Of a stretch of 48,833 nucleotides of DNA, positions 13,112 through 32,059 are shown piece after piece. The notes under the pieces were generated by a model that did no database searches, was not told the DNA's origin, and saw only the letters and a program-made list of their open reading frames with translations. Positions within the stretch are counted from its first letter, which is position 1. The number at the start of each line of letters is the position of its first letter. Location of the stretch: NCBI GenBank assembly GCA_964483505.1, contig CAZAAQ010000001.1:3821-52653 (forward strand), given 5' to 3'. This DNA comes from an uncultured Candidatus Saccharibacteria bacterium (GTDB lineage: Bacteria; Patescibacteriota; Saccharimonadia; Saccharimonadales; Saccharimonadaceae). The translations under genes were made by a program, and so were the position numbers.

Positions 13112-13137
13112 TCACCCCTGTTTTATCTGTAAAACCT
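13112..13137 (+). repeat. TCACCCCTGT-tttatctg-TAAAACCT repeat, copy a
   Basis: Matches copy b on both flanks, with an internal 8-nt duplication. Confidence 0.6.
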
Positions 13138-13190
13138 TAAAAATACGCTGAAATATACAGTTGATTTTAAGAAAAAAAGTGAAAAAAGTG

Positions 13191-13219
13191 TTGACCAAAA
13201 GTCAAGTGTATGCTATAAT
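13191..13219 (+). promoter_or_regulatory. near-consensus sigma-70 promoter (TTGACC, 17-nt spacer, TGcTATAAT)
   Basis: -35 at 13191-13196, TG at 13211-13212, -10 at 13214-13219. This is the best promoter match in the window. Confidence 0.65.
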
Positions 13220-13225
13220 CCAACT

Positions 13226-13525
13226 AGTTTTGATCGATGAGGTCAAAAACCCGCACCTAAATAAATTATTCAAACTTTGCTAAATTTATTTTAGCAATTG
13301 TTGCGTGCTTTGGAAACTCTTTCGGCCTTCAAATTTCTTTTATACAATTTGAAGTGAAAAAGTATTACCTCCACTTAGAAAGTTGCTTCTAAAGCTAGCA
13401 ATCCCTTTAACCGGCGGACCCCGCGCTTTGTGAGGTGGGTCACGCTCCGGATCATCCGGTACCATGGAGGTGTGTTGAAGGGCCAAATAGCCCCAGGTGA
13501 TGCCCACCCTTACCTGGGGCTTTTT
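13226..13525 (+). ncRNA. candidate structured small RNA of about 300 nt, family unknown
   Basis: Bounded by the consensus promoter and a strong terminator, with no credible ORF. Hairpins at 13277-13297 and 13327-13354. Long-range pairing of 13366-13373 with 13465-13472. Confidence 0.45.
13489..13525 (+). terminator. intrinsic terminator of the candidate sRNA
   Basis: 10-bp stem AGCCCCAGGT / ACCTGGGGCT with a 13-nt loop, then TTTTT. Confidence 0.75.
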
Positions 13526-13574
13526 GATGGAAAATTTTTTCAATCTCTTATAACGTGCTAGACTGCAAGAAAGA

Positions 13575-13583
13575 TGTTAATAT
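13575..13583 (+). promoter_or_regulatory. extended -10 box TGTTAATAT, 7 nt upstream of topA ATG
   Basis: Read directly. It supports ATG 13591 (MSKNLVIVESPAKA) rather than the longer ORF-track start. Confidence 0.5.
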
Positions 13584-13590
13584 AAAACAC

Positions 13591-15873
13591 ATGAGTAAAA
13601 ACTTAGTCATCGTCGAGTCCCCAGCGAAAGCCCATACTATCGAGAAATATCTCGGTAGTGATTTTCAGGTCCTAGCTTCCGTCGGCCATATTCGCAAAGA
13701 CACTAAGGTTGATAAGAATACGTTCGATGTCACTTACGAAATTGACCCCGGTCATAAATCCGTTATTGCTGAACTGAAAAAAGCTGCCAAAGCTACTGAT
13801 AAAATCTGGCTCGCAACCGATGAGGACCGCGAAGGAGAAGCCATCTCTTGGCATCTTTTGCAGGTGTTAAATTTGCCAGACAGCACTGCGCGCATTACTT
13901 TCCACGAAATTACCAAAACTGCCCTTGAGAACGCCATTCAAAATCCTCGCACTGTCGATATGGATATGGTTTCTAGCCAACAAGCCCGTCAAACGCTTGA
14001 TATGCTAGTTGGTTTCGACTTGTCCGGCATCGTCCGCAAGAAAGTACCTGGTGCCATTTCCGCCGGCCGCGTGCAAAGTCCAGCGCTCCGTCTAATCGTT
14101 GAAAGGGAACAGAGCATTGAAAAATTCAACGGTAGTGCCAACTATAAAGTAACTGGCGATTTCGGCTTTGCTACTGCTCTTAATCATGATTTCGCCACTG
14201 AGGCCGAAGCGAATGATTATTTACACCAACTGGTCGGCGCCAAATACGTCGTCTCAGGCGTCATAACCACGCCTGGCGTGCGTAAACCGGCCCCGCCTTT
14301 CACCACTGCATCTATGCAAATTGAAGCCAACAGTAAGCTAGGATTTAGCACGCGTACTACCATGCAGGCCGCCCAAGCCCTTTATCAAGCCGGCTTAATT
14401 ACTTATCACCGCACCGATAGCCTAAACCTCAGTAAACAGGCCATCGCCGCCATGGCCAGCTACATTGAACAGACTTATGGCAAATCTTATTTGCGTACCC
14501 GAAATTTCCATACTAAAAGTATGAACGCGCAGGAAGCGCATGAAGCCATCCGTCCAACCAATATCAGCACCGAAGTAGCCGGCAGGAACGATTATGAACG
14601 CCGACTTTATAACCTCATTCGCGGTCGTGCTCTCGCCACACAAATGAGCGACGCCGAAATTGAAAACACTACCGCCCGCATTGCAGCTCCAGCTGATTAT
14701 TTCTTTGAAGGGAAGGGCGAAGTCGTCATCTTTGATGGCTTCCTAAAAGTCTACGGCCGTTTTAAAGAAAACAACCTGCCTAAATTAACCGCCGGCGACG
14801 CACTCAAAGCCAAAACTATTATCGCAAAACAAACTTTTGCCAAAGCTCCAGCTAGATACACTGAGGGCTCACTCGTCAAAAAACTGGAAGAACTCGGCAT
14901 TGGTCGACCAAGCACTTATGCTAGCATTATGTCTGCTATCCAAGCCCGCGGCTATGTGATTAAAGGTGAGTCAGACGGCGAAGAGCGCGATGTCCGGATA
15001 CTCAAGTTGGAAAATGACCAAATTACGGCCGAAACCGTCACCGAAAAGTTCGGCGCCAACAAGGGCAAACTTATTCCGACTCCAATCGGTGAGCTCATCT
15101 CTGGTTTTTTGACCGATAACTTTAAAAATATCGTCGACTACAAATTCACTGCTAATATTGAAAAAGATCTTGATTTAATTGCCGCGCACAAACTCGAGCG
15201 AGTCAAAATGCTACGTGATTTCTATGGACCTTTTAACGACGAAGTCCTTGCCGCCGAAGGCATTGAACGTTACAACAATGCGCGCTTGTTAGGGCACGAC
15301 CCAGAAACCGGCAAACCAATTTACGCGAAAGTCGGTAAAAACGGTGGCTTTATCCAACTCGGCGAAAACGAAAAGGAAAGTGGCGAAAAACCACGCTTTG
15401 CGCCATTGCCAAAACGCAAAAGCGTCAAAACCGTTACTCTTGAATTAGCGCTCAAGCAATTAGCGCTGCCGCAATTACCACGCGCACTTGGCACCACCAA
15501 GGATGGCGTTGAATTAATTGCCGCCTCTGGCCCATTTGGACCATATCTTAAAGCTGGCAAATACAACATTCCAATCAAAGATTTTGATCCATATACTATT
15601 ACATTAGAAGACGCGGAACCACTCTATGAAAAGAAACGCGATTCCTACATTGCAGATTGGGGCGAAATTCAAATTATCAACGGCGCATATGGCCCTTACG
15701 TAAAAGGACCTGGCCGCCGCAATAATGCGCGCATTCCAAAAGATGTCGACCCCAAGACTATAACTGAGGCTCAGGCCAAGGAGATGCTTGAGAACAAGCC
15801 TAAAACTCGGCGTCGCCCAGTCAAACGCAGTCGTGGCAAATCAACGACCAAAACCACCAAAAAAAGCGGCTAA
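13591..15873 (+). CDS. topA: DNA topoisomerase I
   Basis: Toprim N-terminus VIVESPAKA ... TDEDREGE, active-site region ITYHRTDS, basic Lys/Arg-rich C-terminal tail. Confidence 0.93.
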   Translation: MSKNLVIVESPAKAHTIEKYLGSDFQVLASVGHIRKDTKVDKNTFDVTYEIDPGHKSVIAELKKAAKATDKIWLATDEDREGEAISWHLLQVLNLPDSTARITFHEITKTALENAIQNPRTVDMDMVSSQQARQTLDMLVGFDLSGIVRKKVPGAISAGRVQSPALRLIVEREQSIEKFNGSANYKVTGDFGFATALNHDFATEAEANDYLHQLVGAKYVVSGVITTPGVRKPAPPFTTASMQIEANSKLGFSTRTTMQAAQALYQAGLITYHRTDSLNLSKQAIAAMASYIEQTYGKSYLRTRNFHTKSMNAQEAHEAIRPTNISTEVAGRNDYERRLYNLIRGRALATQMSDAEIENTTARIAAPADYFFEGKGEVVIFDGFLKVYGRFKENNLPKLTAGDALKAKTIIAKQTFAKAPARYTEGSLVKKLEELGIGRPSTYASIMSAIQARGYVIKGESDGEERDVRILKLENDQITAETVTEKFGANKGKLIPTPIGELISGFLTDNFKNIVDYKFTANIEKDLDLIAAHKLERVKMLRDFYGPFNDEVLAAEGIERYNNARLLGHDPETGKPIYAKVGKNGGFIQLGENEKESGEKPRFAPLPKRKSVKTVTLELALKQLALPQLPRALGTTKDGVELIAASGPFGPYLKAGKYNIPIKDFDPYTITLEDAEPLYEKKRDSYIADWGEIQIINGAYGPYVKGPGRRNNARIPKDVDPKTITEAQAKEMLENKPKTRRRPVKRSRGKSTTKTTKKSG

Positions 15874-15895
15874 ATAATTCTAGCCGCCTTTTTTA
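15866..15895 (+). terminator. intrinsic terminator of topA
   Basis: Hairpin GCGGCTA / TAGCCGC overlapping the stop codon, followed by CTTTTTT. Confidence 0.7.
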
Positions 15896-16059
15896 AAACG
15901 AAAAAAACGAAACATTTTTTCGATTTATTTTTTGTTAAAAAATTATTAACAGATACGTACCATAGCATAAAACATAAGCATTTTAAACTCTAATACAATT
16001 AGTTATATTTTGTGGCAAGAATGTGGTAAAATAAAACACAAGTAAAGGAATTTTACTTG

Positions 16060-16088
16060 TTGACAACATGATTTTATCATGTTAATAT
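16060..16088 (+). promoter_or_regulatory. sigma-70 promoter (TTGACA, 17-nt spacer, TGtTAATAT) with an embedded inverted repeat
   Basis: -35 at 16060-16065 and -10 at 16083-16088. The spacer is filled by the palindrome AACATGAT-ttt-ATCATGTT (16065-16083), which looks like an operator. Confidence 0.55.
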
Positions 16089-16140
16089 ATATTAAAATAA
16101 TCTATTAACCTGAGACGGGAGAGTAAGGAAAAACGATAGC

Positions 16141-17172
16141 ATGAATAATGCGGAAACAATTACTAAGGCTATTTCGAGTAGTCTAAGTATTATCGAACAA
16201 GAACGCGAAAGAGAAATCACATCCCGCCGTTTCGGTCTCAACGGACACAAAGAGACGCTTGAGCAGATCGGCGAAATGTTATCTATTACACGTGAGCGTG
16301 TACGCCAACTAGAAAAGGCTATTCTTATCCGTCTCCGTATTGCTGCCGAAGAGGGCAAAATCGCTGAACTTGCTCCCGCCGAAAAGATTATCATCCGCAA
16401 CTTGACCGAAATGGGCCGCATTGCTCGTACTTCCGATCTTGCTAAAAAAGTCCTTGGGCACGAAGCATCCGAGGTCGAAAAAGCCAACTTTAATTTCCTT
16501 GGTGAAATCTCACCAGCTCTCATCATCTTAGCCGAAAACGATAAATATCATAACGCAATTGGCATTGCCGAATATGGCGATGAAAAAGCCATCCGTGCTA
16601 AGATTGATGAAATCGTCAACTTGATTAAAACCAACAAAAAACCGATGGATCTTGATGAGCTTGATGCCAAACTCAACTACGAACACCCGAGCCACATCGA
16701 AGCCATTGCTCGTCTCAGTAAACAACTTTCCAGCCTTAACGGCCAATGGGGTTTAACTAAATGGCCAACTGTTAATCCAAAGAATATTCGTGACAAAATC
16801 TATGTTGTGCTAGAAGAGCACAAAGAACCAATGCATTTCTCCGATATTGCGAAAGCCATCAGCTCATCGGATTTCCGCCGCAAAAATGTCACTATCCAAG
16901 CTATCCACAACGAGCTCATTAAAGATTCTCGTTTTGTGCTAATCGGTCGCGGGATTTATGCACTTGATAGTTGGGGTTTTGAAAAGGGCACCGTATCTGA
17001 TATCATCATTAAAATTCTCAAGAAAGCGGGCTCAGAAGGCCTATCACGCAAAGAAATCGTCAAGCAAGTGCTCAAAGAGCGCAAAGTTAAAGAAACTACT
17101 GTTTTGCTCAATCTTCAAGACAAAAAATTGTTTACGCGAGTTGGTAAAGATTACTACAAACTTGCGGCTTAA
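16141..17172 (+). CDS. sigma-70 region 4 plus HARE-HTH-like domain DNA-binding protein (not a complete sigma factor)
   Basis: Residues 25-70, RRFGLNGHKETLEQIGEMLSITRERVRQLEKAILIRLR, match sigma region 4.2. No region 2 is present. The C-terminal half has two winged-helix segments ending RFVLIGRGIYAL and LFTRVGKDYYKL, typical of HARE-HTH. Confidence 0.7.
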   Translation: MNNAETITKAISSSLSIIEQEREREITSRRFGLNGHKETLEQIGEMLSITRERVRQLEKAILIRLRIAAEEGKIAELAPAEKIIIRNLTEMGRIARTSDLAKKVLGHEASEVEKANFNFLGEISPALIILAENDKYHNAIGIAEYGDEKAIRAKIDEIVNLIKTNKKPMDLDELDAKLNYEHPSHIEAIARLSKQLSSLNGQWGLTKWPTVNPKNIRDKIYVVLEEHKEPMHFSDIAKAISSSDFRRKNVTIQAIHNELIKDSRFVLIGRGIYALDSWGFEKGTVSDIIIKILKKAGSEGLSRKEIVKQVLKERKVKETTVLLNLQDKKLFTRVGKDYYKLAA

Positions 17173-17198
17173 TCTCTATACCGAACCCTTTACGTCTA

Positions 17199-17207
17199 TG
17201 CTAAAAT
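17199..17207 (+). promoter_or_regulatory. extended -10 box TGCTAAAAT, 7 nt upstream of ATG 17215
   Basis: Read directly. No SD. Confidence 0.45.
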
Positions 17208-17214
17208 ACTAGTT

Positions 17215-20130
17215 ATGGATATCTTTCACTTTTTATTTACGCCTATTGTCTGGATTTCGATTGTCGTCATCTTAGTGATCTTAACAATCCGTAACTACAA
17301 GAAGCTTAATCGTCTCAGCGTGTTGAACGTCGATAGCGTGCTTTTGATGCTCGAAATCCCAAAAGCCAACGACAAGAAGGAACTGGCAGCCGAACAAATG
17401 TTTGCTTCTCTGCATGGTATTTTGCGTGACGCCAACGAGCTCAAAAACTCTGGCGGTGTACAAGAACACCTTTCTTTTGAGATTGCCTCCACTGGTAATC
17501 AAATTCGTTTCTTCGTCTGGGTGCCAAAAATCCTGCAATCATTCGTAGAAGGCCAAATCTATTCTCAATATCCAAGCGTACAAATCTATCGCATGAAAGA
17601 AGATTACGTCGACCGTCGTAGTAATTATCCCGTAGCATATAGTGCCGAAATCGCTTTGACTGATAATGAGGCGCTACCGATTAAAACCTTCGAATCCTTT
17701 GAAGTGGACCCACTCGCTGGCATCACTGGTACTCTAGCCAAGCTCAGTCCAGAAGGTGGCGAAGAATTATGGATTCAAATTTTGACTCGTCCAATTGCCG
17801 ATAGCTGGCATACTAAAACCGAACAATGGATTAGTAGCGTCAAAGCCGGCAAAGGTTTTAGCCTCTTTGGCAAAATTGACTTTGCTTGGTTCGCTCAGGT
17901 TATTGCAGCGCTTTGGCGACCACCAGAGGGCGGCACTGGCTCTACCTCAACCGTTGAACTCTCCGATCGCGATAAAACTCGAATCACCAAAGCCGAAGAA
18001 AAAGCAACTAAGCTTGGCTATGAAGTCAAAATTCGCATTGCCTATGTGGGGCAAAGCCAAATTAACGCTAAACTCAATATGCAAGCTCTCGTTGGAACCT
18101 TTAAACAATACAACTCCACTAACTTGAATGGCTTCAAAATGGTCGGCAGTAGTTTTGATCCAGCCGCATTGGACGCTTACAAAACTCGCCAATTCACCGA
18201 CCATGGTTTTATTCTCAATATTTCCGAGCTAGCTTCGGTCTATCATTTGCCCCACACGAACGTGGAAACGCCAAACATCGTTTGGGCCACTAATAAGACC
18301 GCTGAACCACCAGCCAAATTGCCAATGCTCACCGGCAACCCAAGCTACGACGAAAACATTTCCGCCTTTGGCCTCACGGACTTCCGCGGTATTAAACACC
18401 AGTTCGGCATGTTCCGCCGCGACCGTTCACGCCACGTTTATATCATTGGTCAAACTGGTTCTGGTAAATCTGGTTTGCTTGAGCTGTTCACTTTATCCGA
18501 TATCTATCACAATCAAGGTTATTGCATCATTGATCCGCACGGCGACTTAGCGATGGATAACCTCAAATTTATCCCAGAATCTCGCATTAAAGACGTCGTC
18601 TATTTCAATCCAGCCGACACTCAATACCCAATGGCATTTAACCCACTTGAAGTCTACGATCCTTCCCGCAAGCCGAATATTTCTTCTGAGGTCATCGGCG
18701 TGTTGAAACGGATGTTCGGCGATTCTTGGGGTCCACGTCTAGAGCATATCTTACGCTACACACTGTTGGCGCTATTGGATCGTCCAGAAACAACTCTGCT
18801 CGATATTTCGCGCATGCTGACCGATAAAGATTTTCGCAAAGAAACTTTGGACTATTGCCAAGACGTCACTGTCTTGCAATTCTGGAAACATGAATTCGGT
18901 AGCTGGAGCGAAAAGCAGGTCACAGAATCAGTTGCGCCAGTGCTCAACAAGGTGGGAGCCTTCACGGCTAACCCAATCATTCGCAACATTATTGGCCAAC
19001 CAAAATCTAGCTTTGATATCCGCAAGATTATGGATGAGGGCAAAATCTTTGTCGTTAACCTATCTAAAGGTCTCATCGGTGAGGATAACGCCGCTATTCT
19101 AGGCGCCTTCCTCGTTACTAAAGTCCAGCTAGCCGCCATGTCACGTTCGGATATCGTAAACGTCGAGGACCGTCGCCCATTCTATCTCTATGTTGATGAG
19201 TTCCAAAACTTTGCCACCGATTCCTTCGCAGTCATTCTATCTGAGGCTCGTAAATATGGCCTCAATCTTACGGTCGCCAACCAGTACACTTCACAGATGA
19301 CCGAAGCCGTTCGTGACGCCGTTTTTGGCAACGTCGGTACCACTATTTCCTTCCGCGTCTCCGCCGATGACGCCCCAGAACTAGCCAAACAATTTGAGCC
19401 AGTCTTTGAAGAGGGCGATCTGCTTAATCTTCACAACCGTCACTTTATCGTCTCAATGATTATTAACGGCGAAAAAGCCCCAGCCTTCTCCGCCACCACC
19501 CTCAGTATCCCAGACACTCCAAGTGATCTCACCGCTCAAATAATCCGCAATTCACGTCTACTTTACTCACGCCCACGCGAAGAAGTCGAAGCGGAAATTC
19601 GCGCCAACATTGAAGCCGCCGACAAATGGAAAAAAGAATTATCCGATTCTGGCCGCCAAGACCGCGACGGTGAAGATAGCGGCGACAGGGAAGAGCGCAA
19701 TTCACGCGCCATTCGCCCAACCTATCAGTTTGTCCCTACCCCACAAGCCGAATTCCGCAAACAAAAGATCTCCCCAGACCAAGCCGAGAACGGCACCAAG
19801 TCCAACGGCCTCAAAGATTTGAATAAGCTCTTTGGTGAAAAAATCAGTCAAGTCGAAACCGCCACCGCCGGGCAGGGCGATTCCCCAGCTCAACCACTCT
19901 TTGATAAGCATGCCGGCAACCCAAACATTGTCCACCCTGCTAATGACCGGCTATTCCAAGAAAATGATAGCCGCGCTGTACAAGCAGACGATCCGCAACG
20001 GCTTAATCGCCCGGCTATTTCATCCAACGGCGTCATCAATCTTGATTATGAGGCCACTCCAGCGCCTTCAGAACGCAATCGCAACAAGAACCGCAATCAT
20101 AACCGCAACCATAGCAAAAACCGCAACTAG
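17215..20130 (+). CDS. membrane-anchored P-loop ATPase of the VirD4/TraG/HerA-FtsK (type IV coupling protein-like) class
   Basis: 971 aa. N-terminal TM helix, a roughly 390-aa domain of unknown function, Walker A GQTGSGKSG (nt 18448-18474), Walker B LYVDEFQNF, and a roughly 190-aa disordered tail ending in NRNKNRNHNRNHSKNRN. Confidence 0.7.
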   Translation: MDIFHFLFTPIVWISIVVILVILTIRNYKKLNRLSVLNVDSVLLMLEIPKANDKKELAAEQMFASLHGILRDANELKNSGGVQEHLSFEIASTGNQIRFFVWVPKILQSFVEGQIYSQYPSVQIYRMKEDYVDRRSNYPVAYSAEIALTDNEALPIKTFESFEVDPLAGITGTLAKLSPEGGEELWIQILTRPIADSWHTKTEQWISSVKAGKGFSLFGKIDFAWFAQVIAALWRPPEGGTGSTSTVELSDRDKTRITKAEEKATKLGYEVKIRIAYVGQSQINAKLNMQALVGTFKQYNSTNLNGFKMVGSSFDPAALDAYKTRQFTDHGFILNISELASVYHLPHTNVETPNIVWATNKTAEPPAKLPMLTGNPSYDENISAFGLTDFRGIKHQFGMFRRDRSRHVYIIGQTGSGKSGLLELFTLSDIYHNQGYCIIDPHGDLAMDNLKFIPESRIKDVVYFNPADTQYPMAFNPLEVYDPSRKPNISSEVIGVLKRMFGDSWGPRLEHILRYTLLALLDRPETTLLDISRMLTDKDFRKETLDYCQDVTVLQFWKHEFGSWSEKQVTESVAPVLNKVGAFTANPIIRNIIGQPKSSFDIRKIMDEGKIFVVNLSKGLIGEDNAAILGAFLVTKVQLAAMSRSDIVNVEDRRPFYLYVDEFQNFATDSFAVILSEARKYGLNLTVANQYTSQMTEAVRDAVFGNVGTTISFRVSADDAPELAKQFEPVFEEGDLLNLHNRHFIVSMIINGEKAPAFSATTLSIPDTPSDLTAQIIRNSRLLYSRPREEVEAEIRANIEAADKWKKELSDSGRQDRDGEDSGDREERNSRAIRPTYQFVPTPQAEFRKQKISPDQAENGTKSNGLKDLNKLFGEKISQVETATAGQGDSPAQPLFDKHAGNPNIVHPANDRLFQENDSRAVQADDPQRLNRPAISSNGVINLDYEATPAPSERNRNKNRNHNRNHSKNRN

Positions 20131-20321
20131 CGCCTTTTACGCAGTCATTAGGCTATGTCCGAAAAAACGCTAGAAACCACTTTTGATTTTTAATCTCGTC
20201 AACTTGCGGTACCAATACTAAAAAATATCCAGACAAAAACCGAACATCAACCAGCAGGGAAGCCATAACTGTTTTTGTTATGTCATTTATGCCATTACAA
20301 AAATAATGCATACTTCCCCTT

Positions 20322-20338
20322 CTCTGTTCCACCCCTAT
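20322..20338. repeat. left arm of an inverted repeat, CTCTGTTCCACCCCTAT
   Basis: The reverse complement of 21072-21087 is CTCTGTTCTCCCCTAT, which is identical except for CA versus T. Confidence 0.6.
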
Positions 20339-20375
20339 AATTTTTTGCGCTCATTGCGTCAACCAGCGGACAAAC

Positions 20376-20392
20376 TCACCCCTGTAAAACCT
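20376..20392 (+). repeat. TCACCCCTGTAAAACCT repeat, copy b
   Basis: The exact 14-mer TCACCCCTGTAAAA also occurs at 20875-20888. A variant with an 8-nt internal duplication is at 13112-13137. Confidence 0.7.
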
Positions 20393-20874
20393 CAAATTAA
20401 CAGATAAGATGCCAGTACAGATAAAGCCAGCCATCATAGGTTTTAGACCGATATGCACAAAATCAAGTTCAGAAACAGCAACAGCCACAGTAGGGCAAAT
20501 ACAGAACCGCAACGCAAGGCTATTAGCAGCCAGCCGGCAGATTCTAAGCATAATCGAGACGAGTGTTTATGCGTCTTTTTGCCAAACATGAAATGTCGCA
20601 CAATATATCTTTTGCGACTTAATAACTGGTAAAGTCGGTTCAGCAACTATATATCCCACATGCTGATAGTCTCCAGCAGAACAGACCGACCCACTACAAA
20701 TCTACTAACAGTTTTATCATTATTAATGCATTAAACCCGCTGGATATTTACTTATTCGCAACGTTTTTTCAGGTAGAATCGCAGGCTCTACGACTACTAA
20801 GACATCCATCTAAGCCACTTTTTAAGCCTAAATTCATTTGGAAAATTTGACATTTTGACAACAGTTTTTCCACA

Positions 20875-20888
20875 TCACCCCTGTAAAA
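20875..20888 (+). repeat. TCACCCCTGTAAAA repeat, copy c
   Basis: Exact 14-mer match to 20376-20389. Confidence 0.7.
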
Positions 20889-20894
20889 ATATAT

Positions 20895-20903
20895 ATTATA
20901 ACA
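20895..20903 (-). promoter_or_regulatory. orphan extended -10 box TGTTATAAT on the - strand
   Basis: The reverse complement of ATTATAACA. It points into the ORF-poor gap, and the predicted transcript would begin with TTTTACAGGGGTGA. Confidence 0.4.
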
Positions 20904-20926
20904 TATTTACTTACTACATTGCAAGT

Positions 20927-20942
20927 ATTTCACGCGTGAAAT
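20927..20942. repeat. perfect 16-bp palindrome ATTTCACGCGTGAAAT
   Basis: Self-complementary, read directly. A second perfect 12-bp palindrome, TTAATGCATTAA, lies at 20723-20734. Confidence 0.8.
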
Positions 20943-20988
20943 TGTCCCTAATTCTAATTTTTGATTACCCTGTTCTTTGCTCTTCTCT

Positions 20989-21014
20989 ACCCCTGTTTAA
21001 CAGATAGAAAACCG
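20989..21014 (+). repeat. ACCCCTGTTTAACAGATAGAAAACCG composite repeat, copy d
   Basis: Shares CCCCTGT with copies a-c and TAACAGATA(G/C)AAAACCG with 31851-31867. Confidence 0.55.
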
Positions 21015-21071
21015 CGCTCAGCCCTATTCACTGATCATTCCTCGCCGACGCCTTCCGAACAAAAACCGAAC

Positions 21072-21087
21072 ATAGGGGAGAACAGAG
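21072..21087. repeat. right arm of the inverted repeat, ATAGGGGAGAACAGAG
   Basis: See 20322-20338. It abuts the AAAAACCGAACAT copy at 21061-21073. Confidence 0.6.
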
Positions 21088-21115
21088 CATAATTTTCCTC
21101 AAAAGCCCTCAAACC

Positions 21116-24278: not shown

Positions 24279-24284
24279 ATAACT

Positions 24285-24293
24285 ATCTTACCA
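24285..24293 (-). promoter_or_regulatory. extended -10 box TGGTAAGAT, 6 nt upstream of pyk ATG
   Basis: The reverse complement of ATCTTACCA. No SD. Confidence 0.45.
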
Positions 24294-24324
24294 TATCCGC
24301 TATCATCACTCATCAAAACTATCA

Positions 24325-24356
24325 TAAAAAATGGTCTAGCTCTTTAAACTAGACCA
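24325..24356 (-). terminator. intrinsic terminator after tRNA-Glu(UUC)
   Basis: Hairpin GGTCTAG / CTAGACC followed by a T-run on the - strand. Confidence 0.6.
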
Positions 24357-24368
24357 ATATTGCAAAAC

Positions 24369-24444
24369 TGGTGATCACGGTGGGACTCGAACCCACGATT
24401 GCCAGGATGAAAACCTGGAGTCCTAACCACTAGACGACGTGACC
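24369..24444 (-). tRNA. tRNA-Glu(UUC)
   Basis: Hand-folded. Acceptor GGTCACG/CGTGATC, anticodon loop TTTTCAT, T-arm GTGGG-TTCGAGT-CCCAC, encoded CCA. Confidence 0.88.
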
Positions 24445-24489
24445 AGTATCGTTATTTTAACATAGAACCAAACGTCAGTCCAGTTATTT

Positions 24490-26797: not shown

Positions 26798-26798
26798 A

Positions 26799-27833
26799 TT
26801 AACGAATTATGCCTCCACCCATTGCCAAAAATACGCCTAGCATTGCGGTAATTCCACCGATAATCCAGAATCGCATTACTACTTTGCTCTCTTCCCAGCC
26901 TTTCGCCTGCAAATGATGGTGCAGTGGCGCGCTCAAGAAAATCTTCCGATGGAAAAACTTTTTCGAAATAATTTGAATCAAAGAGCTACCAGCTTCCACC
27001 ACAAACAGAAAACCAATTACCGGCAACAACAAAAACGATTTCGTTAACACCGCCACTGCACCGAGACCAGCACCCAATGCGAACGAACCCGTATCCCCCA
27101 TCATAAAACGGGCCGGATAGACATTAAACCAAGTGTAAGCTAACAGTGCGCCTACCACCACAATACAAAATCCCGCCAAATACCATTGTTCCTGCAATAA
27201 TGCGATGACGCCATATGAACCATAAGCCATCATTGCTAAACCGCCCGCCAAACCATCCATGCCATCCGAAATATTGACCGCATTGCCCGTCGCCACCACC
27301 GAGAAAGCAAATAGCAAAATCATTCCTACCACCCCAATATCTAGAGTGCCATAAAATGGCACATTCAAAGCCGTCCAACCCAACTTTACTGCAAAGAACC
27401 AACCCAAGAACAGGCCCAAAGCCGATATCATGGCAAACTTCACCGGTGCGCGCAACCCTGCTACGGCATTTTTGCCGTAAAGATTCATTAAATCATCAAT
27501 AAAACCAATCAAACCACCACCAATGAAAGCCGCCAGCGGCAACCAAGTTTGTTCGCGCGTCAAACAGTTGCAAGCAATGATTACTGTCGGCACTGAGACC
27601 AGCATAATCACGCCAGCCATCGTTGGAAAATGCCGTTTAATTTTTGCAGCATGTAATTTATTCATCACCGTCAATTCTTCGCCAGTAATTGCCACACTCT
27701 TTTGTTTCTTCCAAAGTTTATGCTTGTATGCGAAATTCGTATAAATTGGCGTCAAAAACATCGACAGCAAAAACGCCCCTAGAGCCAAAATCAGTTCATA
27801 TCCGATATTCTTATTTATGTCACTAAACAACAT
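26799..27833 (-). CDS. mraY: phospho-N-acetylmuramoyl-pentapeptide transferase
   Basis: 344 aa, polytopic, with NAVNISDGMDGLAGG and HHH-containing loop motifs. Confidence 0.9.
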   Translation of the reverse strand: MLFSDINKNIGYELILALGAFLLSMFLTPIYTNFAYKHKLWKKQKSVAITGEELTVMNKLHAAKIKRHFPTMAGVIMLVSVPTVIIACNCLTREQTWLPLAAFIGGGLIGFIDDLMNLYGKNAVAGLRAPVKFAMISALGLFLGWFFAVKLGWTALNVPFYGTLDIGVVGMILLFAFSVVATGNAVNISDGMDGLAGGLAMMAYGSYGVIALLQEQWYLAGFCIVVVGALLAYTWFNVYPARFMMGDTGSFALGAGLGAVAVLTKSFLLLPVIGFLFVVEAGSSLIQIISKKFFHRKIFLSAPLHHHLQAKGWEESKVVMRFWIIGGITAMLGVFLAMGGGIIR

Positions 27834-27845
27834 GCCTTTTCCTTT

Positions 27846-29633
27846 CTATATATTTGGCGCTACTCTTAAATATTCAATCATATAATTGCTAATTTCGGTG
27901 AAAATTGGCACGGCATTGATGCTTCCCCAAAGTAATCGATTGCCATCAAGTCTCACCATCACTACATACTGTGGCATAGCGTCATCTTTACCAGTACCGC
28001 CAAAACCGATCACGCTCGCCACTGTTTTATCAGAAGTATAATTGCCATTTTCGTCGTAAGTTTCAGCTGTACCAGTTTTGACGCCGACATAATATCCAGC
28101 TGGGTCATATTTACCGCCATTTACGCTACGCACCTCGCGCAACGCCTTTCGCATAGTGGCGCTGGTGCTAGCACTAATGGTCTGGCGTAGTGCTGCTTTT
28201 TGCTCAGCTTTTACCAACTTGCCATCCTGCATAGTCCCGGCCACAATCGTCGGCTGATAATATTTACCACCGTTGATAATTGAGGAAAATCCCGACGCCA
28301 CCTGCACCATCGTCAAGTTCATGCCCTGTCCAAAGGTCATATTAGCGTATCGTACCGCATTGCCTTCCGTCTCTTCTGGGCTAATAATCGTACCGGATTC
28401 CTCGTACAGCTCAACTCCAGTTTTTTGTCCAAGACCAAAATCATTATGTAAGTAATCGTATAATTTCGTTCTAGTAGCTTTGGTAATATCACCGCCTCCC
28501 ATTCGCCTCAAGACCTCTACGCTACCCGTATTCAGCGAAAAATCCAGCGCAGATTGAAAAGTCAGCGTCCCAGTGTGTGGATTAGAGCTGGTCGCGTTAT
28601 GAATCGTACGGTCAGCCACCACCGTCTTCCCGGTGTTCACATAAGTATCGCTCAAACTAATTGCACCCTCATTCAACGCCGTCGCATACGTAAATGTCTT
28701 ACAAACGCTAGCTGGCTCATAAGGACTTTCCGTAGTCCGATTCGTATAGACACTGCTATCAGTCACCTTCCAATATTGCTCGGGATTATAAGTTGGGTAA
28801 TTTGCCATCGCATATATTTTTCCCGTATTCGGGTCCATTACTAATGCACTCGCCGCACTAATTCCGCTGTTGTTCGCCATCGCACTCTGCAAAATTCTTT
28901 CAACCTTATGTTGGATATTCTCATCTAGCGTTAGCACTACATCTTCGCCGTCTTTTGCGGCAATTTCAATGTTATCATCGCCAATTGATAACGGGATATC
29001 ATTCACATCAGTCACCGATTTTAACAACCCATTAGTACCAGACAGCTTATCGTTCAACGAGCCCTCCACGCCAGTGCCAACACCTTCTGCATTTACAAAA
29101 CCAAGCACCTGGCTAGCTAGTTCTCCAGCTGGATAAACCCGCTTCGAAGTCTCCTTTTGCCCCACACCCCGAAGGTTAGCAGCCTTAATCTTTGATACCG
29201 TGTCATAGTTTACATTCTTTGCCACTTCGACATACATGTTCTTCATATTGGACCAAACTTTTGACCAATCCGTAATCATCTGATCACCTAAGATATTCGA
29301 AACTTCGCTTTGAACTTTATCCTTATCGGCCACGTAGCTCGGATCAATAAAGATTGTCCAAGTACGCTCATTCATCACCACTGGCGTCACGCCGTCTTCG
29401 CCGCTCATCATATAAATCTCACCCCGCTTTGCGATCAACTCAGTCTGTTTAACCCGTTGCGAACTTGCTTCAGCCACATATTTATCATGGTCAATAATTT
29501 GGACAAAAAACAGCCGAACACCAATCACGCACAATACCACCACTGGCAATAATGCCAATAAGCCATACCGCGTATTTTTGTTTTCCAGTATTTCTTTTAC
29601 CTTAGCCTTTGGCTTCGGTGGTTCCATTAACAT
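27846..29633 (-). CDS. ftsI: penicillin-binding protein (class B transpeptidase, FtsI/PBP2-like)
   Basis: N-terminal TM helix and dimerisation domain, then transpeptidase motifs SVCK (SxxK), SSN and KTGTA. Start moved to ATG 29633 because a TATAAT box lies 6 nt upstream. Confidence 0.85.
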   Translation of the reverse strand: MLMEPPKPKAKVKEILENKNTRYGLLALLPVVVLCVIGVRLFFVQIIDHDKYVAEASSQRVKQTELIAKRGEIYMMSGEDGVTPVVMNERTWTIFIDPSYVADKDKVQSEVSNILGDQMITDWSKVWSNMKNMYVEVAKNVNYDTVSKIKAANLRGVGQKETSKRVYPAGELASQVLGFVNAEGVGTGVEGSLNDKLSGTNGLLKSVTDVNDIPLSIGDDNIEIAAKDGEDVVLTLDENIQHKVERILQSAMANNSGISAASALVMDPNTGKIYAMANYPTYNPEQYWKVTDSSVYTNRTTESPYEPASVCKTFTYATALNEGAISLSDTYVNTGKTVVADRTIHNATSSNPHTGTLTFQSALDFSLNTGSVEVLRRMGGGDITKATRTKLYDYLHNDFGLGQKTGVELYEESGTIISPEETEGNAVRYANMTFGQGMNLTMVQVASGFSSIINGGKYYQPTIVAGTMQDGKLVKAEQKAALRQTISASTSATMRKALREVRSVNGGKYDPAGYYVGVKTGTAETYDENGNYTSDKTVASVIGFGGTGKDDAMPQYVVMVRLDGNRLLWGSINAVPIFTEISNYMIEYLRVAPNI

Positions 29634-29639
29634 AAGTTT

Positions 29640-29645
29640 ATTATA
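29640..29645 (-). promoter_or_regulatory. -10 box TATAAT, 6 nt upstream of ftsI ATG 29633
   Basis: The reverse complement of ATTATA, lying inside the upstream extension of the ORF-track call (GTG 29651). Confidence 0.4.
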
Positions 29646-29711
29646 CCGCACCCATTCAAAAAAAGAGACGACTAGACACTACGCCTACCGCCTCATCGTT
29701 ATTATCAATAA

Positions 29712-30074
29712 TTAGTTATTTGCGTAGCCAGAGCTCTTTGCCTCTGTCATCGTTGATGCAACCGTGTTGCTATCTTCATCTGCCGCTCCAGCTGTAATCT
29801 TCGCATTTTCCACCGCTAAAGCATCTTTTTGAGCTTCGAGATCAGTAATTTGGCTATTTACATCCGCAATCGCATGGTCGTAACTGGTGACCTTGGCGCT
29901 TTGGGAGACAAAAATCAAACCAAAGCAAGCCACAATCAGTAATACTGTGATGGTATGGCTAACCGGCCCTAATACGATTTTTGGGTTATGTCTAACGGCG
30001 TTACGGTTGGGAGCCCAAGCTGCTGACCCCATAGATGAACCCGCCATTCTTCTAGTTGCGTAATATGCAGACAT
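29712..30074 (-). CDS. FtsL/DivIC-like single-pass coiled-coil protein
   Basis: 120 aa with one TM helix (TVLLIVACFGLIFV) followed by a coiled coil (QITDLEAQKDALAVENAKI). It lies immediately upstream of ftsI. Confidence 0.45.
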   Translation of the reverse strand: MSAYYATRRMAGSSMGSAAWAPNRNAVRHNPKIVLGPVSHTITVLLIVACFGLIFVSQSAKVTSYDHAIADVNSQITDLEAQKDALAVENAKITAGAADEDSNTVASTMTEAKSSGYANN

Positions 30075-30280
30075 CAAAAATAATTCCGTTTCTTTTTGTT
30101 TTTATTTCCTTTTCTTTTCCTTTTTTGATCTTTAAAGCTTTAGGGGGCTAGCTAGGCCCTGAAAAGATAAGCCTAGCTGCCAGATTCCCCAAAGAGGTCA
30201 AAAAATTGTATACACACTCCACAAAAACTTCACCTATTCTTGGTACCCCATAGCTGGGGCATATAGGTTGTTTTTGTATC

Positions 30281-30308
30281 AAAAGTCAGCCGTTTATTAA
30301 CAGCCGAC
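30281..30308 (-). terminator. putative intrinsic terminator after the 20-codon ORF
   Basis: On the - strand, GUCGGCUG-uuaauaaa-CGGCUGAC forms 8 bp, including 2 G-U pairs that exist only on this strand, followed by UUUU. Confidence 0.4.
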
Positions 30309-30316
30309 TTTATAGC

Positions 30317-30379
30317 TTAACGAAAATGTACGGTAACTTTTTCTGCGCGAGAACGGTTGGTGACAATAATCTTTGCCAT
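30317..30379 (-). CDS. 20-codon ORF (MAKIIVTNRSRAEKVTVHFR) with a strong SD; micropeptide or leader peptide
   Basis: AAAGGAG lies 7 nt upstream of the ATG, and a TAA stop is followed by a hairpin and U-run. It sits between rsmH and the ftsL-like gene. Confidence 0.3.
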   Translation of the reverse strand: MAKIIVTNRSRAEKVTVHFR

Positions 30380-30460
30380 TTTGATTACTCCTTTTATTTG
30401 TTTGTTTTTATTTTTACGATGTGCAGCTCGTGCCCTACCGCAACTCGCCATCAAGATTTG

Positions 30461-31336
30461 CTAGATCTTTTCGGCAACTCGCAGCTTTGCACTCCTTGCA
30501 CGCGGATTGTTAACTATTTCAGTACTGTCCGCAATAATTGGCTTCTTCGTCAAAACTTTTAGTTGCGATTCAATCCCCTCACTGCTTTCCTCGCTAAAAT
30601 ATGTTTTGACCAAGCGGTCCTCGAGACTATGAAAAGAAATAATTGCGACTCTCCCACCCGGCTTCAGCAGCTTCGGTAGTAGCGGCAATGTTCGCTCAAT
30701 CTCACCCAACTCATCATTTACGACGATTCGGATGGCCTGAAAGATTCTAGTTGCTGGATGCACATGCATATATGGCGACTTACTTTTAATTAAGCCCGCC
30801 AGCTCAGTCGTCGTGTTGATAGGTCTATTTAAGACTATCTCGCGCGCCAACATTTTTGCTCTGCCGCTGTGCTCTTCTCCATAAACTTGGAAAATTTCCG
30901 CTAGCTTCCGTTCACTCCACTCGTTGACGATCGTCCAGGCGTCAAGCGCTTGTGACTGATCCATTCGCATGTCAAGTCGGGCTGGTTTTGTAAACGAAAA
31001 GCCTCTTTCATCTCGATCTAATTGCGGCGAAGAAACTCCAAAGTCCGCCAATATCATATCAAAGCGTTGTTTATTCTCCACTAGTCGTAGCGCCGTACTA
31101 TAAAAATCATCATGCATCAATTTCGGCTTCACTACTTGGTACTTCGCCATTAAGAAATCGATTGCATTTTGATCACGGTCATTTAAAACCGCCTCATTAT
31201 AATTCTGCGTTACTTCCAAAATTTTATCAGCATGCCCACCGTATCCAGCCGTCAGGTCAAGATAGCTCTCGCCCGCGCTTGGCTTTAAATACTTAAGTAC
31301 GCTTTCTAACAATACTGGAATATGAACTTCATTCAT
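30461..31336 (-). CDS. rsmH: 16S rRNA (cytosine1402-N4)-methyltransferase
   Basis: 291 aa with HIPVLL, DLTAGYGGH and DFGVSSPQLD motifs. Confidence 0.9.
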   Translation of the reverse strand: MNEVHIPVLLESVLKYLKPSAGESYLDLTAGYGGHADKILEVTQNYNEAVLNDRDQNAIDFLMAKYQVVKPKLMHDDFYSTALRLVENKQRFDMILADFGVSSPQLDRDERGFSFTKPARLDMRMDQSQALDAWTIVNEWSERKLAEIFQVYGEEHSGRAKMLAREIVLNRPINTTTELAGLIKSKSPYMHVHPATRIFQAIRIVVNDELGEIERTLPLLPKLLKPGGRVAIISFHSLEDRLVKTYFSEESSEGIESQLKVLTKKPIIADSTEIVNNPRARSAKLRVAEKI

Positions 31337-31342
31337 TTCTTC

Positions 31343-31348
31343 ATTATA
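31343..31348 (-). promoter_or_regulatory. -10 box TATAAT, 6 nt upstream of rsmH ATG
   Basis: The reverse complement of ATTATA. The spacer is GAAGAA. Confidence 0.4.
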
Positions 31349-32032
31349 TCTTGTTCGAACCCGAACATCTAGAAATTTCAGGTTTTTGTGTTTTTTGTTG
31401 TTTGTTTTGTTCCTTTACACATTTAAGATTTCCACGACTTTTGCTGGCATATAGCCGACTTACTGTCATGGCGTTGAGAGACTTAATTTGTGTGAGGTGG
31501 AGTTATATTGTTTGGGAGGTGTGTATTTTAGAGAATGTACCTACAGTTTTGATTTCGCGTATCCTAAACGCGCCCGAAACTCCTAGATGACCGGATTCGA
31601 ACTTTGTAAATGTGCAACAAAAACTACTCAGTTTAGCGTTTGACTAAAGTGATAATTTCGTAACTTTGCGATTGGTCCCTGTTCTCAGTTGTCTGATCCA
31701 TCTTTTCCAATCGTCCTTCTGATTTATTTTTGTTTGTTTCGTGGTGTTTATTTTTGCTTTCCACTTGCCATTAGTTTAAGCAACTTTTTAGACAAAATCA
31801 AGTGCCATTTTGTGACGCTTTTCCACATTTTGGTGCATAAATCCAACCGCTAACAGATACAAAACCGAACACTATTTTATTTTCGCTTGTGCTTTTGCAC
31901 ACTTGCGATATTTTAGAATATATATCATAAAAACCGAACATTGACCATATGCACCACCCATTGACAAATAGCACAATATATTTTAATTATTGACTTCACC
32001 CTACCCTTGCCAAAATTTAACAATATGGTCAC

Positions 32033-32059
32033 AAAAAGCCCCGGCTTTACGCCGAGGCT
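32033..32059 (-). terminator. intrinsic terminator after the 210-aa membrane protein gene
   Basis: On the - strand, AGCCUCGG / CCGGGGCU (one G-U pair) followed by UUUU. Confidence 0.5.

Follow-up and report, generated by a model that had tools for sequence, protein, structure and literature searches.

Repeats Confined to Non-Coding DNA

Three short sequences, M1, M2, and M3, recur in the largest non-coding regions of the window, a stretch of 48,833 nucleotides from an uncultured Candidatus Saccharibacteria bacterium. The question is whether a single regulator binds such repeats, whether they are the conserved 5' starts of small RNAs (sRNAs), or whether they are pieces of a miniature repeat element. 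The exact copies listed by the sequence-only reading were all recovered at their coordinates, and all are on the + strand. M1 (TCACCCCTGTAAAA) is found at 20376 and 20875, and M2 (AAAAACCGAACAT) is found at 20235, 21061, and 31929, with an additional copy at 31860 that has 2 mismatches. M3 is TAACAGATA, and its longer form M3b, TAACAGATA[G/C]AAAACCG, is found at 20998 and 31851.

The chance expectation was estimated by shuffling the window, with mismatches permitted. With up to 2 mismatches, M1 was observed twice against 0.37 expected, and M2 nine times against 2.6 expected, a count matched in 1 of 100 shuffles. M3b with up to 3 mismatches was observed three times against 0.22 expected, and no shuffle of 100 matched it. 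In the 708-kb assembly, exact M1, M2, and M3b occur at these window sites alone and none of the sites is coding, which upholds the claim that the family is confined to non-coding DNA. Eleven of the 16 genome copies of TAACAGATA are in the non-coding 12-13% of the genome, and the cores CCCCTGT, CCTGTTA, and TAACAGA are enriched 4-5 times in non-coding DNA genome-wide. Some TAACAGA matches are extended -10 promoters of the opposite strand (10941 and 20398) or parts of terminator stems.

Some sequences once counted as outlying members are not supported as part of the family. The "degenerate copy" of M1 near 32005 aligns with a + strand promoter, TTGACx-N17-TAnnAT, which drives a gene in the relatives; here the promoter is decayed (32005..32036, + strand, -35 box TTGCCA) and the downstream gene is absent. 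AAAAACGAAACAT at 15903, which was taken for a relative of M2 and shows 2 mismatches, sits in an A/T run past the topA terminator. At the 3' end of the ATPase gene, the AACCGCAAY repeat codes for an Asn/Arg-rich tail (NRNKNRNHNRN), and nothing ties it to M2. An M2 identity was also rejected for CCCGAACAT at 31358, which in the alignment falls on the -35 zone (TTGAAC in other genera) of the rsmH promoter. This promoter is leaderless, belongs to rsmH itself, and lies 6 nt from the ATG.

A Conserved Module between the ATPase Gene and the dcw Block

At least 56 Saccharibacteria genomes (Nanosyncoccaceae-like) have the repeat blocks at orthologous positions. Those of the first intergenic region (IGR1) form a ~0.9-kb module, with the gene of a VirD4-like ATPase on one side and the final gene of the dcw block on the other. 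The first reading did not recognize that the entire region is a deeply conserved module. The M2 18-mer, a core palindrome, iterons, and M1 occur together in a fixed order in about 56-64 genomes, which are relatives of one another, so that the counts of conservation here and of spacing below overstate independence. In every genome with recovered flanks, the module is flanked by the ATPase gene and a gene for a protein of 213 aa. The ATPases from the at least 56 genomes with this module context are 60-85% identical in amino acids. Among genomes of the same genus, identity is 88-97% in those parts of IGR1 which carry M1 copy 2 and M2 copy 2. In the second region, upstream of the dcw cluster (IGR2), ~600 nt with no ORF are 75-81% identical, with indels throughout.

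The tblastx matches in IGR1 are spread over all frames, and thus its conservation is not protein-coding. A large structured RNA in IGR1 was rejected, as its central part folds no better than shuffled sequence (z-scores -0.96 and +0.17). RNAalifold on the core region returned the short stem of the palindrome alone. The search against Rfam, with gathering and E-value thresholds, found no family in IGR1 or IGR2, and none in the distant loci upstream of rsmH.

The expectation that the copies have a common function or ancestry is borne out by these conserved, syntenic blocks. From the sequence comparison, it is somewhat likely that M1, M2, and M3 are conserved cis-acting blocks of two non-coding loci in Saccharibacteria of the Nanosyncoccus group.

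M1 and M3 as a Half-Site for Iterons

M1 and M3 are one half-site in two orientations, CCCCTGT[T/A]A and TAACAG, a relationship missed in the first reading. In the relatives, this half-site builds 22-bp iterons whose spacings are multiples of 11 bp. The iteron zone of this genome (20322..20406, + strand) contains CCACCCCTATAA (20330-20341), M1 copy 1 TCACCCCTGTAAAA (20376-20389), which is the last iteron, and M3 TAACAGATA (20398-20406), which is the inverted partner of M1 copy 1. The relatives have 2-8 units of ~22 bp (CCCTAT..ACCCCTGTTA) in this zone, one as the perfect palindrome CTGTTATAACAG. Helical phasing is observed: 37 of the 48 iteron spacings deviate by at most 1 bp from a multiple of 11 (binomial p ~1e-12 for these related genomes).

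The half-site is also found outside the zone. CCCCTGTTTAACAGATAGAAAACCG (20990..21014, + strand) is an iteron half-site pair with the palindrome CTGTT-T-AACAG, fused to a partial M2; the position of this M3-M2 junction is not conserved in the relatives. M1-like and M3 motifs are also between the DnaA boxes upstream of dnaA, at oriC. The M1 copy at 13113..13137 (+ strand) has the reported 8-nt internal duplication, which its ortholog TTTCGCCCCTGTAAAAACCTTAAAAA in a related genome (G041) does not have. This copy is 55 nt upstream of the -35 box of the promoter TTGACC-N17-TATAAT (13193-13221, + strand), which drives a conserved structured RNA of ~300 nt.

The iteron arrays (CCCCTGTTA), which in the relatives are on one face of the DNA helix, would be loading sites for a DNA-binding protein. 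We infer that proteins bind these sites, and the candidates for the cognate protein, namely a syntenic sigma-region-4/HARE-HTH protein, DnaA, and an OmpR-type regulator, are only guesses. The arrays are similar to plasmid and chromid iterons and to centromere-like arrays (parC of plasmid R1) in the ~22-bp direct repeats, the ~11-bp sub-repeats, the single helical face, the adjoining DnaA box, and the AT-rich DNA. In contrast to those systems, a cognate gene, such as one for Rep or ParR, was not found here, and the array is chromosomal, single-copy, and ancient, with genes that converge on it instead of diverging.

M2 and Its Neighboring DnaA Boxes

M2 consists of a 10-11-bp unit, (A)AACCGAACA, either in tandem with an 11-bp period, which had been overlooked, or inverted. 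Copies of it stand at both ends of the 0.9-kb module and again upstream of rsmH and the dcw cluster, with a tendency to adjoin DnaA boxes. All M2 copies in the genome have the same orientation. The left block (20228..20262, + strand) is TCCAGACAAAAACCGAACAT followed by a decayed second unit CAACCAGCA and GGGAAG; in the relatives, 2-3 AACCGAACA units form a regular tandem here, and TAGGGAAG comes next. The right block (21055..21080, + strand) is CCGAACA-AAAA-CCGAACA, with an 11-bp period, followed by T and AGGGGA. The right 18-mer is identical in 9 of 9 aligned species of the genus and present in dozens of other Saccharibacteria genomes. The tandem has a single intergenic copy in this genome and likewise in G041.

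The region upstream of the dcw cluster (31819..31941, + strand), in IGR2, shows DnaA boxes alternating with M3-M2 and M2. They are the DnaA box TTTTCCACA (31819-31827), M3-M2 (31851-31872, + strand), the DnaA box TTTTGCACA (31893-31901), which is TTTTCCACA in most relatives, and M2 (31929-31941, + strand). All of them are conserved in 9 aligned species. The M2 at 31929 is followed by a + strand promoter (TTGACA at 31961), whose predicted start is ~61 nt downstream of the M2 center.

Within the module, a DnaA-box match, TTTTCCACA (20866..20874, + strand), adjoins M1 copy 2. A box at this exact spot is specific to this genome, but in 19 of 56 modules TTTTCCACA is found ~100 nt ahead of the right M2 block. 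In G041, an inverted M2 pair, AAAACCGAACA-TCG-TGTTCGGTTTT, is beside DnaA boxes in the ppa-gap intergenic region, and M2 is found again near oriC. Two of the four M2 loci of G041 have a DnaA box no more than 150 nt away (permutation p ~0.001). The association is weak in the present genome (1 of 5 loci, p = 0.12).

M2 would be the site of a second DNA-binding protein, separate from the iteron binder. The proposal of regulator sites is plausible as to the type of site. Instead of one regulator, however, the data favor two or more specificities, with M1 and M3 (the CTGT[T/A]A iterons) under one and M2 (the AACCGAACA unit) under another. Further arrays, GTGAAAT inverted repeats and DnaA boxes, are beside M1, M2, and M3.

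The direct-repeat boxes of the OmpR/PhoB family (the Pho box, and the sites of CtrA and MtrA at oriC and cell-division genes) are the closest in form. M2 is likewise a 7-nt repeat with a 4-nt A-rich spacer and an 11-bp period, it neighbors DnaA boxes and precedes the dcw cluster, and a single OmpR-type regulator is encoded in the genome. Unlike these boxes, M2 also comes in an inverted arrangement, and its sites upstream of rsmH are separated by 500-600 bp from the leaderless promoter of that gene; nothing ties the OmpR-type regulator of this genome to M2, and there is no M2 upstream of the regulator gene. The regulator gene adjoins genes for a kinase and an FtsX-like permease.

The LexA (Cheo) box has the palindromic consensus CGAAC-N4-GTTCG. 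It was rejected for M2, which is a direct repeat here and, in the inverted form of G041, has a 5-nt spacer between CGAAC and GTTCG. An MraZ operator was rejected as well: a six-frame search of the 95%-complete genome found no MraZ domain, and rsmH has its own promoter.

The three conserved same-orientation DnaA boxes in ~140 bp of non-coding DNA in IGR2 are similar to DnaA-box clusters outside oriC (datA and DARS of E. coli, DBCs of B. subtilis), including their interleaving with putative sites of another factor. IGR2 has fewer boxes than those clusters, and its boxes may do no more than regulate the flanking promoters.

The Core Palindrome as a Candidate dif Site

The core palindrome, AATGTCGCACA-ATATATCT-TTTGCGACTTA (20592..20621), has two 11-bp inverted arms and an 8-bp center. 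Its family consensus is AATGTCGCACA-N8-TTTACGACATT, with arms symmetric at 9 of 11 positions and a variable center. There is one intergenic copy in this genome and one in G041, and the only other exact 13-mer of the palindrome is inside a conserved coding gene. A strict-pattern scan across all genomes gave 19 matches, 5 of them in Saccharibacteria, the pattern being too strict. A hairpin, AGACG-N9-CGTCT, followed by a T run, is at 20558..20580, and in other genomes a (A)GACG-N10-CGTC(TTTT) unit is on one or both sides of the palindrome.

The genome has one tyrosine recombinase, which scores as XerD/XerC-like and above the cut-off of the single-recombinase XerA model. An FtsK-type ORF at C2:41145-43382 was identified by its Walker A motif alone. 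The palindrome is regarded as a candidate dif site because it has a single intergenic copy, is at the position where the gene orientation flips, and is in a genome with a single Xer recombinase. It resembles the dif sites of single-recombinase systems (XerH/difH, XerS/difSL, and archaeal XerA/dif) in the single intergenic copy, the inverted 11-bp arms, the short variable center, and the non-coding position at a switch of gene orientation in a one-Xer genome. It differs from XerCD and XerH sites, which have a 6-bp center, in its 8-bp center. It also differs from dif systems in its lack of similarity to published dif consensus sequences, in a position that is not across from oriC, and in the absence of a skew inversion. 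A search of the genome with E. coli, B. subtilis, and actinobacterial dif sequences gave nothing convincing; the best matches had at least 7 mismatches, and none was at the core palindrome.

There is a tentative case that the 0.9-kb module is a chromosome-maintenance locus, in which the palindrome would be dif, flanked by helically phased arrays and same-orientation AACCGAACA repeats for fork pausing or organization. If so, the locus would be only about one quarter round the chromosome from oriC, implying either very unequal replication arms or a broad one-sided termination zone.

Another reading makes IGR1 the region of dimer resolution and fork meeting, with the palindrome as the dif of the single Xer and the repeats as accessory or fork-pausing sites and not operators. 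We consider it rather unlikely. The gene orientation does turn from + to - exactly at the module in this genome, in G041 (153 kb), and in G042 (422 kb), but synteny is inherited and the three flips are not independent. At the module, the GC skew steps from about -0.13 to -0.23 and the gene-strand-corrected 5-mer signature goes from -0.9 to about 0; the far side is, however, compositionally neutral and not a mirror image, and the skew never changes its sign. The high conservation of the palindrome, its near-identical arms, the single XerD/XerC/XerA-like recombinase, the presence of FtsK, and the lack of a canonical dif elsewhere in the genome fit this reading, although known dif sites are palindromic at the inner arm positions and the core palindrome at the outer ones. 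The common direction of all M2 copies also speaks for it, but M2 is found near oriC and in a metabolic promoter region as well, a poor fit to a fork barrier. In addition, classic DnaA boxes accompany oriC at the dnaA gene of contig C14, and the module is ~235 kb from dnaA in a genome of ~0.9 Mb, so the replichores would be very unequal. Placement of oriC or the terminus by simple GC skew was rejected, as the skew is negative over the entire window.

Another palindrome, ATTTCACGCGTGAAAT (20927..20942), corresponds to CGTGAAA-N20-TTTCACG in the relatives, which carry a second copy just past the ATPase gene. A parS centromere, TGTTNCACGTGAAACA, was rejected, with no match in the genome at up to 2 mismatches. 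Compared with parS, ATTTCACGCGTGAAAT has two extra central bases, and the halves in the relatives are everted and 20 nt apart.

A Predicted sRNA Gene on the Minus Strand

M1 copy 2 (20875-20888) is at the start of a predicted conserved sRNA gene on the - strand. The best IGR1 promoter is on this strand (20895..20924), reading TTGCAA-N18-TATAAT with an upstream TG. Its extended -10 element, TGTTATAAT or TGTTGTAAT, is retained in nearly all genomes with the sRNA block, and is 7-9 nt upstream of (A/U)UUUACAGGGGU in 21 distinct sequences. The predicted sRNA body is at 20770..20888 (- strand), and its 5' end, UUUUACAGGGGUGA, is the reverse complement of M1 copy 2. A conserved block, UGUCAAAU (20845-20852, - strand; reverse complement of ATTTGACA), follows the 5' end. 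We infer that this sRNA is transcribed.

In about 20 relatives, a GC-rich hairpin is located ~60-110 nt from the sRNA start, mostly followed by a U run. It has at least four different stem sequences, and the pairing is maintained: 90% of cells pair, 8 of 14 pairs are changed on both sides, and 0 of 500 shuffles reached this level. With E up to 0.1, a covariance model built on the 5'/3' helix and the hairpin found full-length homologs in the expected orientation at 14 of the 19 loci searched. The sRNA of the present genome has no clear terminator of the relatives' type and was not recovered by the model at E up to 1.

The earlier idea that the repeats are conserved 5' ends of sRNAs thus holds for M1 at 20875 only, and on the opposite strand; the remaining copies do not have such geometry. 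At +1 to +14 of the sRNA gene, M1 copy 2 would be an operator, a functional RNA 5' end, or both. The gene is similar to trans-acting sRNAs with a 5' seed and an intrinsic terminator in the conserved extended -10, the conserved first ~13 nt, the variable middle, the co-varying hairpin usually followed by a U run, and the length of ~100-120 nt. It differs from them in having no Rfam family and, in this genome, no recognizable terminator.

It is also conceivable, at low probability, that the M1 copies are targets or sponges of this sRNA and not protein sites. The sRNA 5' end UUUACAGGGGUG would pair with the + strand sequence ACCCCUGU(A/U)A, and the targets would be the iterons in the long 3' region past the ATPase gene and the 13112 copy past pth. 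The M1 copies and iterons are all on the + strand, 3' of + strand genes, and perfectly complementary to the sRNA 5' end, and the sRNA gene is convergent with the ATPase gene. Against this, the spacing by multiples of 11 bp is a property of the DNA helix and unnecessary for RNA pairing. Moreover, the sRNA 5' end departs from the CCCC core in three species (L042, L136, and L132) while their iterons keep it, indicating that the two are not strictly coupled. No co-variation between the sRNA 5' end and the iterons was seen.

Absence of Mobile-Element Features

A relic of a mobile or plasmid-like element, either an integrated iteron-type origin or a non-autonomous element between two M2 direct repeats, is very improbable. 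In its favor, ~20-bp direct repeats flank an 830-bp segment in which AT-rich DNA and a DnaA box are found together with iterons and a palindrome of the recombinase type. Against it, there is a single copy per genome, in an identical context in at least 56 genomes whose ATPases share 60-85% amino-acid identity; no empty site and neither a transposase nor a rep gene was found, blastn against 72,556 plasmids and 50,697 phages gave no match, and a pattern-specific viral scan gave only 2 matches. The proposal of a miniature repeat element is refuted by the mere 2-3 copies in the genome, at orthologous, syntenic positions in at least 56 genomes and the lack of any plasmid or phage match. A MITE or IS fragment was likewise rejected, because the exact motifs are limited to 2-3 named intergenic regions of the 708-kb assembly and the module has an invariant position in all relatives with recovered flanks.

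Implications for Saccharibacteria

To our knowledge, gene regulation, small RNAs, and chromosome maintenance are almost undescribed in Saccharibacteria and other Patescibacteria, and neither this locus nor any dif site or sRNA of the group was described in the literature we searched. The module is single-copy, contains many repeated sites, and is conserved to the same degree as the flanking proteins. Annotators are cautioned that these repeats are not mobile DNA. They provide two candidate operator motifs for a proteome with very few DNA-binding proteins. For Saccharibacteria, which are now transformable, the candidate sRNA and the candidate dimer-resolution site would serve as experimental handles.

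Distribution of the Short Repeats

The exact repeats M1, M2, and M3b are at the positions given for them in the sequence-only reading, and every one is on the plus strand. M1 (TCACCCCTGTAAAA) is found at 20376 and 20875, and M2 (AAAAACCGAACAT) at 20235, 21061, and 31929; M2 also has a near copy, at 31860. M3b (TAACAGATA[G/C]AAAACCG), in which M3 is joined to part of M2, is found at 20998 and 31851. Shuffles of the window contained far fewer matches than observed, confirming that the copies are beyond chance. Their restriction to non-coding DNA also holds: in the assembly containing the window (708 kb, 40 contigs, 44% G+C), exact M1, M2, and M3b occur only at sites in the window, each non-coding. 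The cores CCCCTGT, CCTGTTA, and TAACAGA are enriched 4–5 times in the non-coding 12% of the genome. Some sequences that had been assigned to the family are outside it. The claimed degenerate copy near 32005 is a decayed plus-strand promoter, the claimed copy at 15903 sits within the A/T run of a terminator, and the AACCGCAAY repeat codes for the Asn/Arg-rich tail of an ATPase.

Most copies are in two intergenic regions, IGR1 (20131–21115), between the converging 3' ends of the ATPase gene and a gene for a 213-aa protein, and IGR2 (31337–32065), upstream of rsmH. IGR1 is partly conserved in 19 of 24 genomes of the same genus. The conserved parts are 20529–20621, the block around M1 copy 2 (88–91% identity), and the block around M2 copy 2 (91–97%). 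In IGR2, ~600 nt without an ORF are conserved at 75–81% identity in 22 of the 24 genomes, and the conservation stops exactly at the M2 copy at 31929–31941. The tblastx matches are spread over every reading frame, indicating that what is conserved is the nucleotide sequence.

Structure of the Module

The 18-mer CCGAACAAAAACCGAACA is present in dozens of Saccharibacteria genomes. In 56–64 genomes, it is accompanied, in a fixed order, by other blocks of a ~0.9-kb conserved non-coding locus in IGR1, the module. The block order along the plus strand was assembled from the comparison of relatives. The module begins with CGTGAAA-N20-TTTCACG, followed by a tandem of 2–3 AACCGAACA units and (T)AGGGAAG. 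Next are iterons of ~22 bp (CCCTAT..ACCCCTGTTA), the last of which is often a perfect palindrome (CTGTTATAACAG), a short GACG/CGTC hairpin, a core palindrome (AATGTCGCACA-N8-TTTACGACATT), and a predicted sRNA gene on the minus strand. A second CGTGAAA-N20-TTTCACG follows, in many genomes together with the DnaA box TTTTCCACA and TTTCCCT repeats, and the module ends with CCGAACA-AAAA-CCGAACA and (T)AGGGGA.

It follows from this anatomy that M1 (CCCCTGT[T/A]A) and M3 (TAACAG) are one half-site in two orientations, that M1 copy 1 and the M3 at 20398 constitute the final iteron of the array, and that M2, tandemly repeated with a period of 11 bp, brackets the module in direct orientation. The spacings between iterons cluster at 11–12, 21–23, 32–34, 44–45, and 55–56 bp. 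Among 48 spacings, 37 deviate from a multiple of 11 by no more than 1 bp, although the p-value overstates independence as the genomes are related. Spacing in multiples of 11 characterizes sites on one face of the DNA helix.

In more distant genomes (loci L026, L045, L054, L099, and L127), an imperfect hairpin of ~200 nt lies between the core palindrome and an M1-like block. Its stems co-vary and its tip, CCGGTATTACAGTACCGTACTCGG, is conserved, in reversed orientation in L045. The hairpin is possibly a further RNA, or else a segment that is invertible or cruciform.

Association of M2 with DnaA Boxes

M2 is used in both tandem and inverted forms, which, with the 11-bp period, fits a putative site for a DNA-binding protein. 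The genome containing the window has one response regulator, of the OmpR type (searched with an approximate CheY probe), and nothing connects it with M2. IGR2 contains three DnaA-box matches of a single orientation, alternating with M3-M2 and M2, and all of these elements are conserved in the genus. M2 occurs together with DnaA boxes in further genera too, 390–680 nt upstream of rsmH. Contig C14 carries oriC, located at dnaA and rich in TT[A/T/G]TCCACA boxes; upstream of dnaA, one M3 motif and one M1-like motif lie between DnaA boxes. A second, weak Bac_DnaA-domain match is present in a 302-aa open frame at C40:2224–2517 (E = 4.6e-10); the true dnaA is the C14 gene.

Non-coding AACCGAACA sites were scanned on a 735-kb contig of a relative, G041. 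They are located in the module, between ppa and gap (an inverted pair, AAAACCGAACA-TCG-TGTTCGGTTTT, and a third copy, adjoining two DnaA boxes), near oriC, adjoining DnaA boxes, and at one further site. Two of these four loci have a DnaA box no more than 150 nt away (permutation p about 0.001). The corresponding number in the genome containing the window is one of five (p = 0.12).

Predicted RNAs

The proposal that the repeats are conserved 5' ends of small RNAs stands for M1 copy 2, on the minus strand. The other M1 copies lack the promoter geometry, so it accounts for one copy only. The best promoter match in IGR1 reads along the minus strand, where TTGCAA-N18-TATAAT with TG spans 20924–20895, and its extended -10 is kept in relatives. 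The predicted sRNA would start near 20888, and would thus begin with UUUUACAGGGGUGA (M1 copy 2 in reverse complement), after which comes the conserved UGUCAAAU.

A GC-rich hairpin is found 60–110 nt downstream of the predicted start in ~20 relatives. It has at least four unrelated stem sequences, most followed by a U run, on the sRNA strand only. A covariance model (CM) built with a 5'/3' closing helix in addition to this hairpin retrieved full-length homologs on the expected strand from 14 of the 19 loci searched, with E up to 0.1. In the CM-based alignment, 90% of cells pair, and both sides are changed in 8 of 14 pairs, a level reached by 0 of 500 shuffles; slid controls gave at most 4 such pairs. 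This co-variation is supportive, not conclusive, because the alignment was fitted to the CM. In the genome containing the window, the predicted sRNA gene has an intact promoter and 5' part, no clear terminator was seen, and the CM gives no score.

Another RNA candidate is at 13193–13530 on the plus strand. The promoter TTGACC-N17-TATAAT precedes a strongly folding RNA of ~300 nt (z = -4.75), which ends with an intrinsic terminator (13484–13530) and has no Rfam match. Both the RNA sequence and the promoter are conserved in G041 before a different gene. A topA leader was therefore rejected, and the RNA is probably an independent ncRNA gene.

Core Palindrome and Replication

That the module is a dif/terminus locus is a serious but unproven explanation. 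The 30-bp core palindrome, in which two nearly identical inverted arms of 11 bp flank a variable 8-bp centre, has one intergenic copy each in the genome containing the window and in G041; the sole other exact 13-mer is within a conserved gene. The only tyrosine recombinase in the genome scores as XerD/XerC-like, and its score against the single-recombinase XerA model is above that model's cut-off. The genome also has an FtsK-type ORF, identified from the Walker A motif only, and the search found no canonical dif sequence. Gene orientation switches at the module in this genome and in the relatives G041 and G042, GC skew steps there, and the gene-strand-corrected 5-mer signature changes from -0.9 to about 0. 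These features favour a boundary at the module. Three others speak against a simple terminus: the GC skew keeps one sign throughout, the sequence beyond the module is compositionally neutral and not a mirror image, and dnaA is only about 235 kb away in a genome of about 0.9 Mb.

The whole contig C3 of G041 (loci L152–L188) has C in excess of G on the plus strand almost throughout. Its strand-independent skew is -0.23 left of dnaA, climbs slowly from -0.11 to +0.03 right of dnaA, and is intermediate over the first 150 kb, and the 5-mer signature has the same gradient. The pattern is an unusual replication-linked composition or, possibly, a MAG artefact.

Gene Context

One flank of IGR1 encodes a 971-aa membrane-anchored VirD4/TraD-like ATPase, with a sigma-region-4/HARE-HTH protein encoded ahead of it. 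Both (16141–20130, plus strand) keep strict synteny with the module in every genome checked. In Streptomyces, traB has clt repeats downstream. The arrangement of the ATPase gene and its downstream repeats recalls this layout. The 213-aa protein at the opposite flank, with no family assigned, is the last of a minus-strand block that starts at rsmH and includes ftsL- and ftsI-like genes.

No MraZ domain was found in the genome, and rsmH is served by a promoter of its own, in which TATAAT is 6 nt ahead of the ATG (31337–31356, minus strand). On this basis, rsmH appears leaderless. Every Nanosyncoccaceae-type genome examined has TATAAT, often as TGTATAAT, 6–7 nt ahead of the rsmH ATG. The element AACACCTCCCAAAACTCCACCTCACACATAAGTCTCTCAA is read on the minus strand toward rsmH at 31474–31540 and contains the anti-Shine-Dalgarno-like CACCTC twice. 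Around 57 Saccharibacteria genomes from across the order have it, 170–400 nt upstream of rsmH. There is no mraZ gene; the element has no Rfam match, and RNAalifold gives no common fold. At 31961–32070 on the plus strand, the promoter TTGACA-N17/18-TAATTA(T) is followed after ~75 nt by a hairpin (AGCCCCGGC-TTTAC-GCCGAGGCT) and a T run. The equivalent promoter in relatives drives a Cys-rich (zinc-ribbon-like) gene that is absent here, where a short orphan transcript may be left.

A MITE or IS element, as had been suggested for the repeats, is excluded because the module keeps its block order and syntenic position between constant flanks (amino-acid identity of 60–85% for the ATPase and 30–50% for the 213-aa protein) and matches no record in plasmid and phage collections.

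The repeats are neither mobile DNA nor chance matches. In the favoured interpretation, the module, which may serve in chromosome maintenance or transcriptional control, would combine three parts. Two or more DNA-binding proteins would have putative sites in it, one family of the iteron-type CTGT[T/A]A and the other of AACCGAACA, the latter linked with DnaA boxes. The second part is one predicted sRNA gene carrying an iteron half-site at its 5' end, and the third is a possible recombinase site. The repeats are conserved cis-elements, most likely functional, and belong to a non-coding locus that had not been described before.
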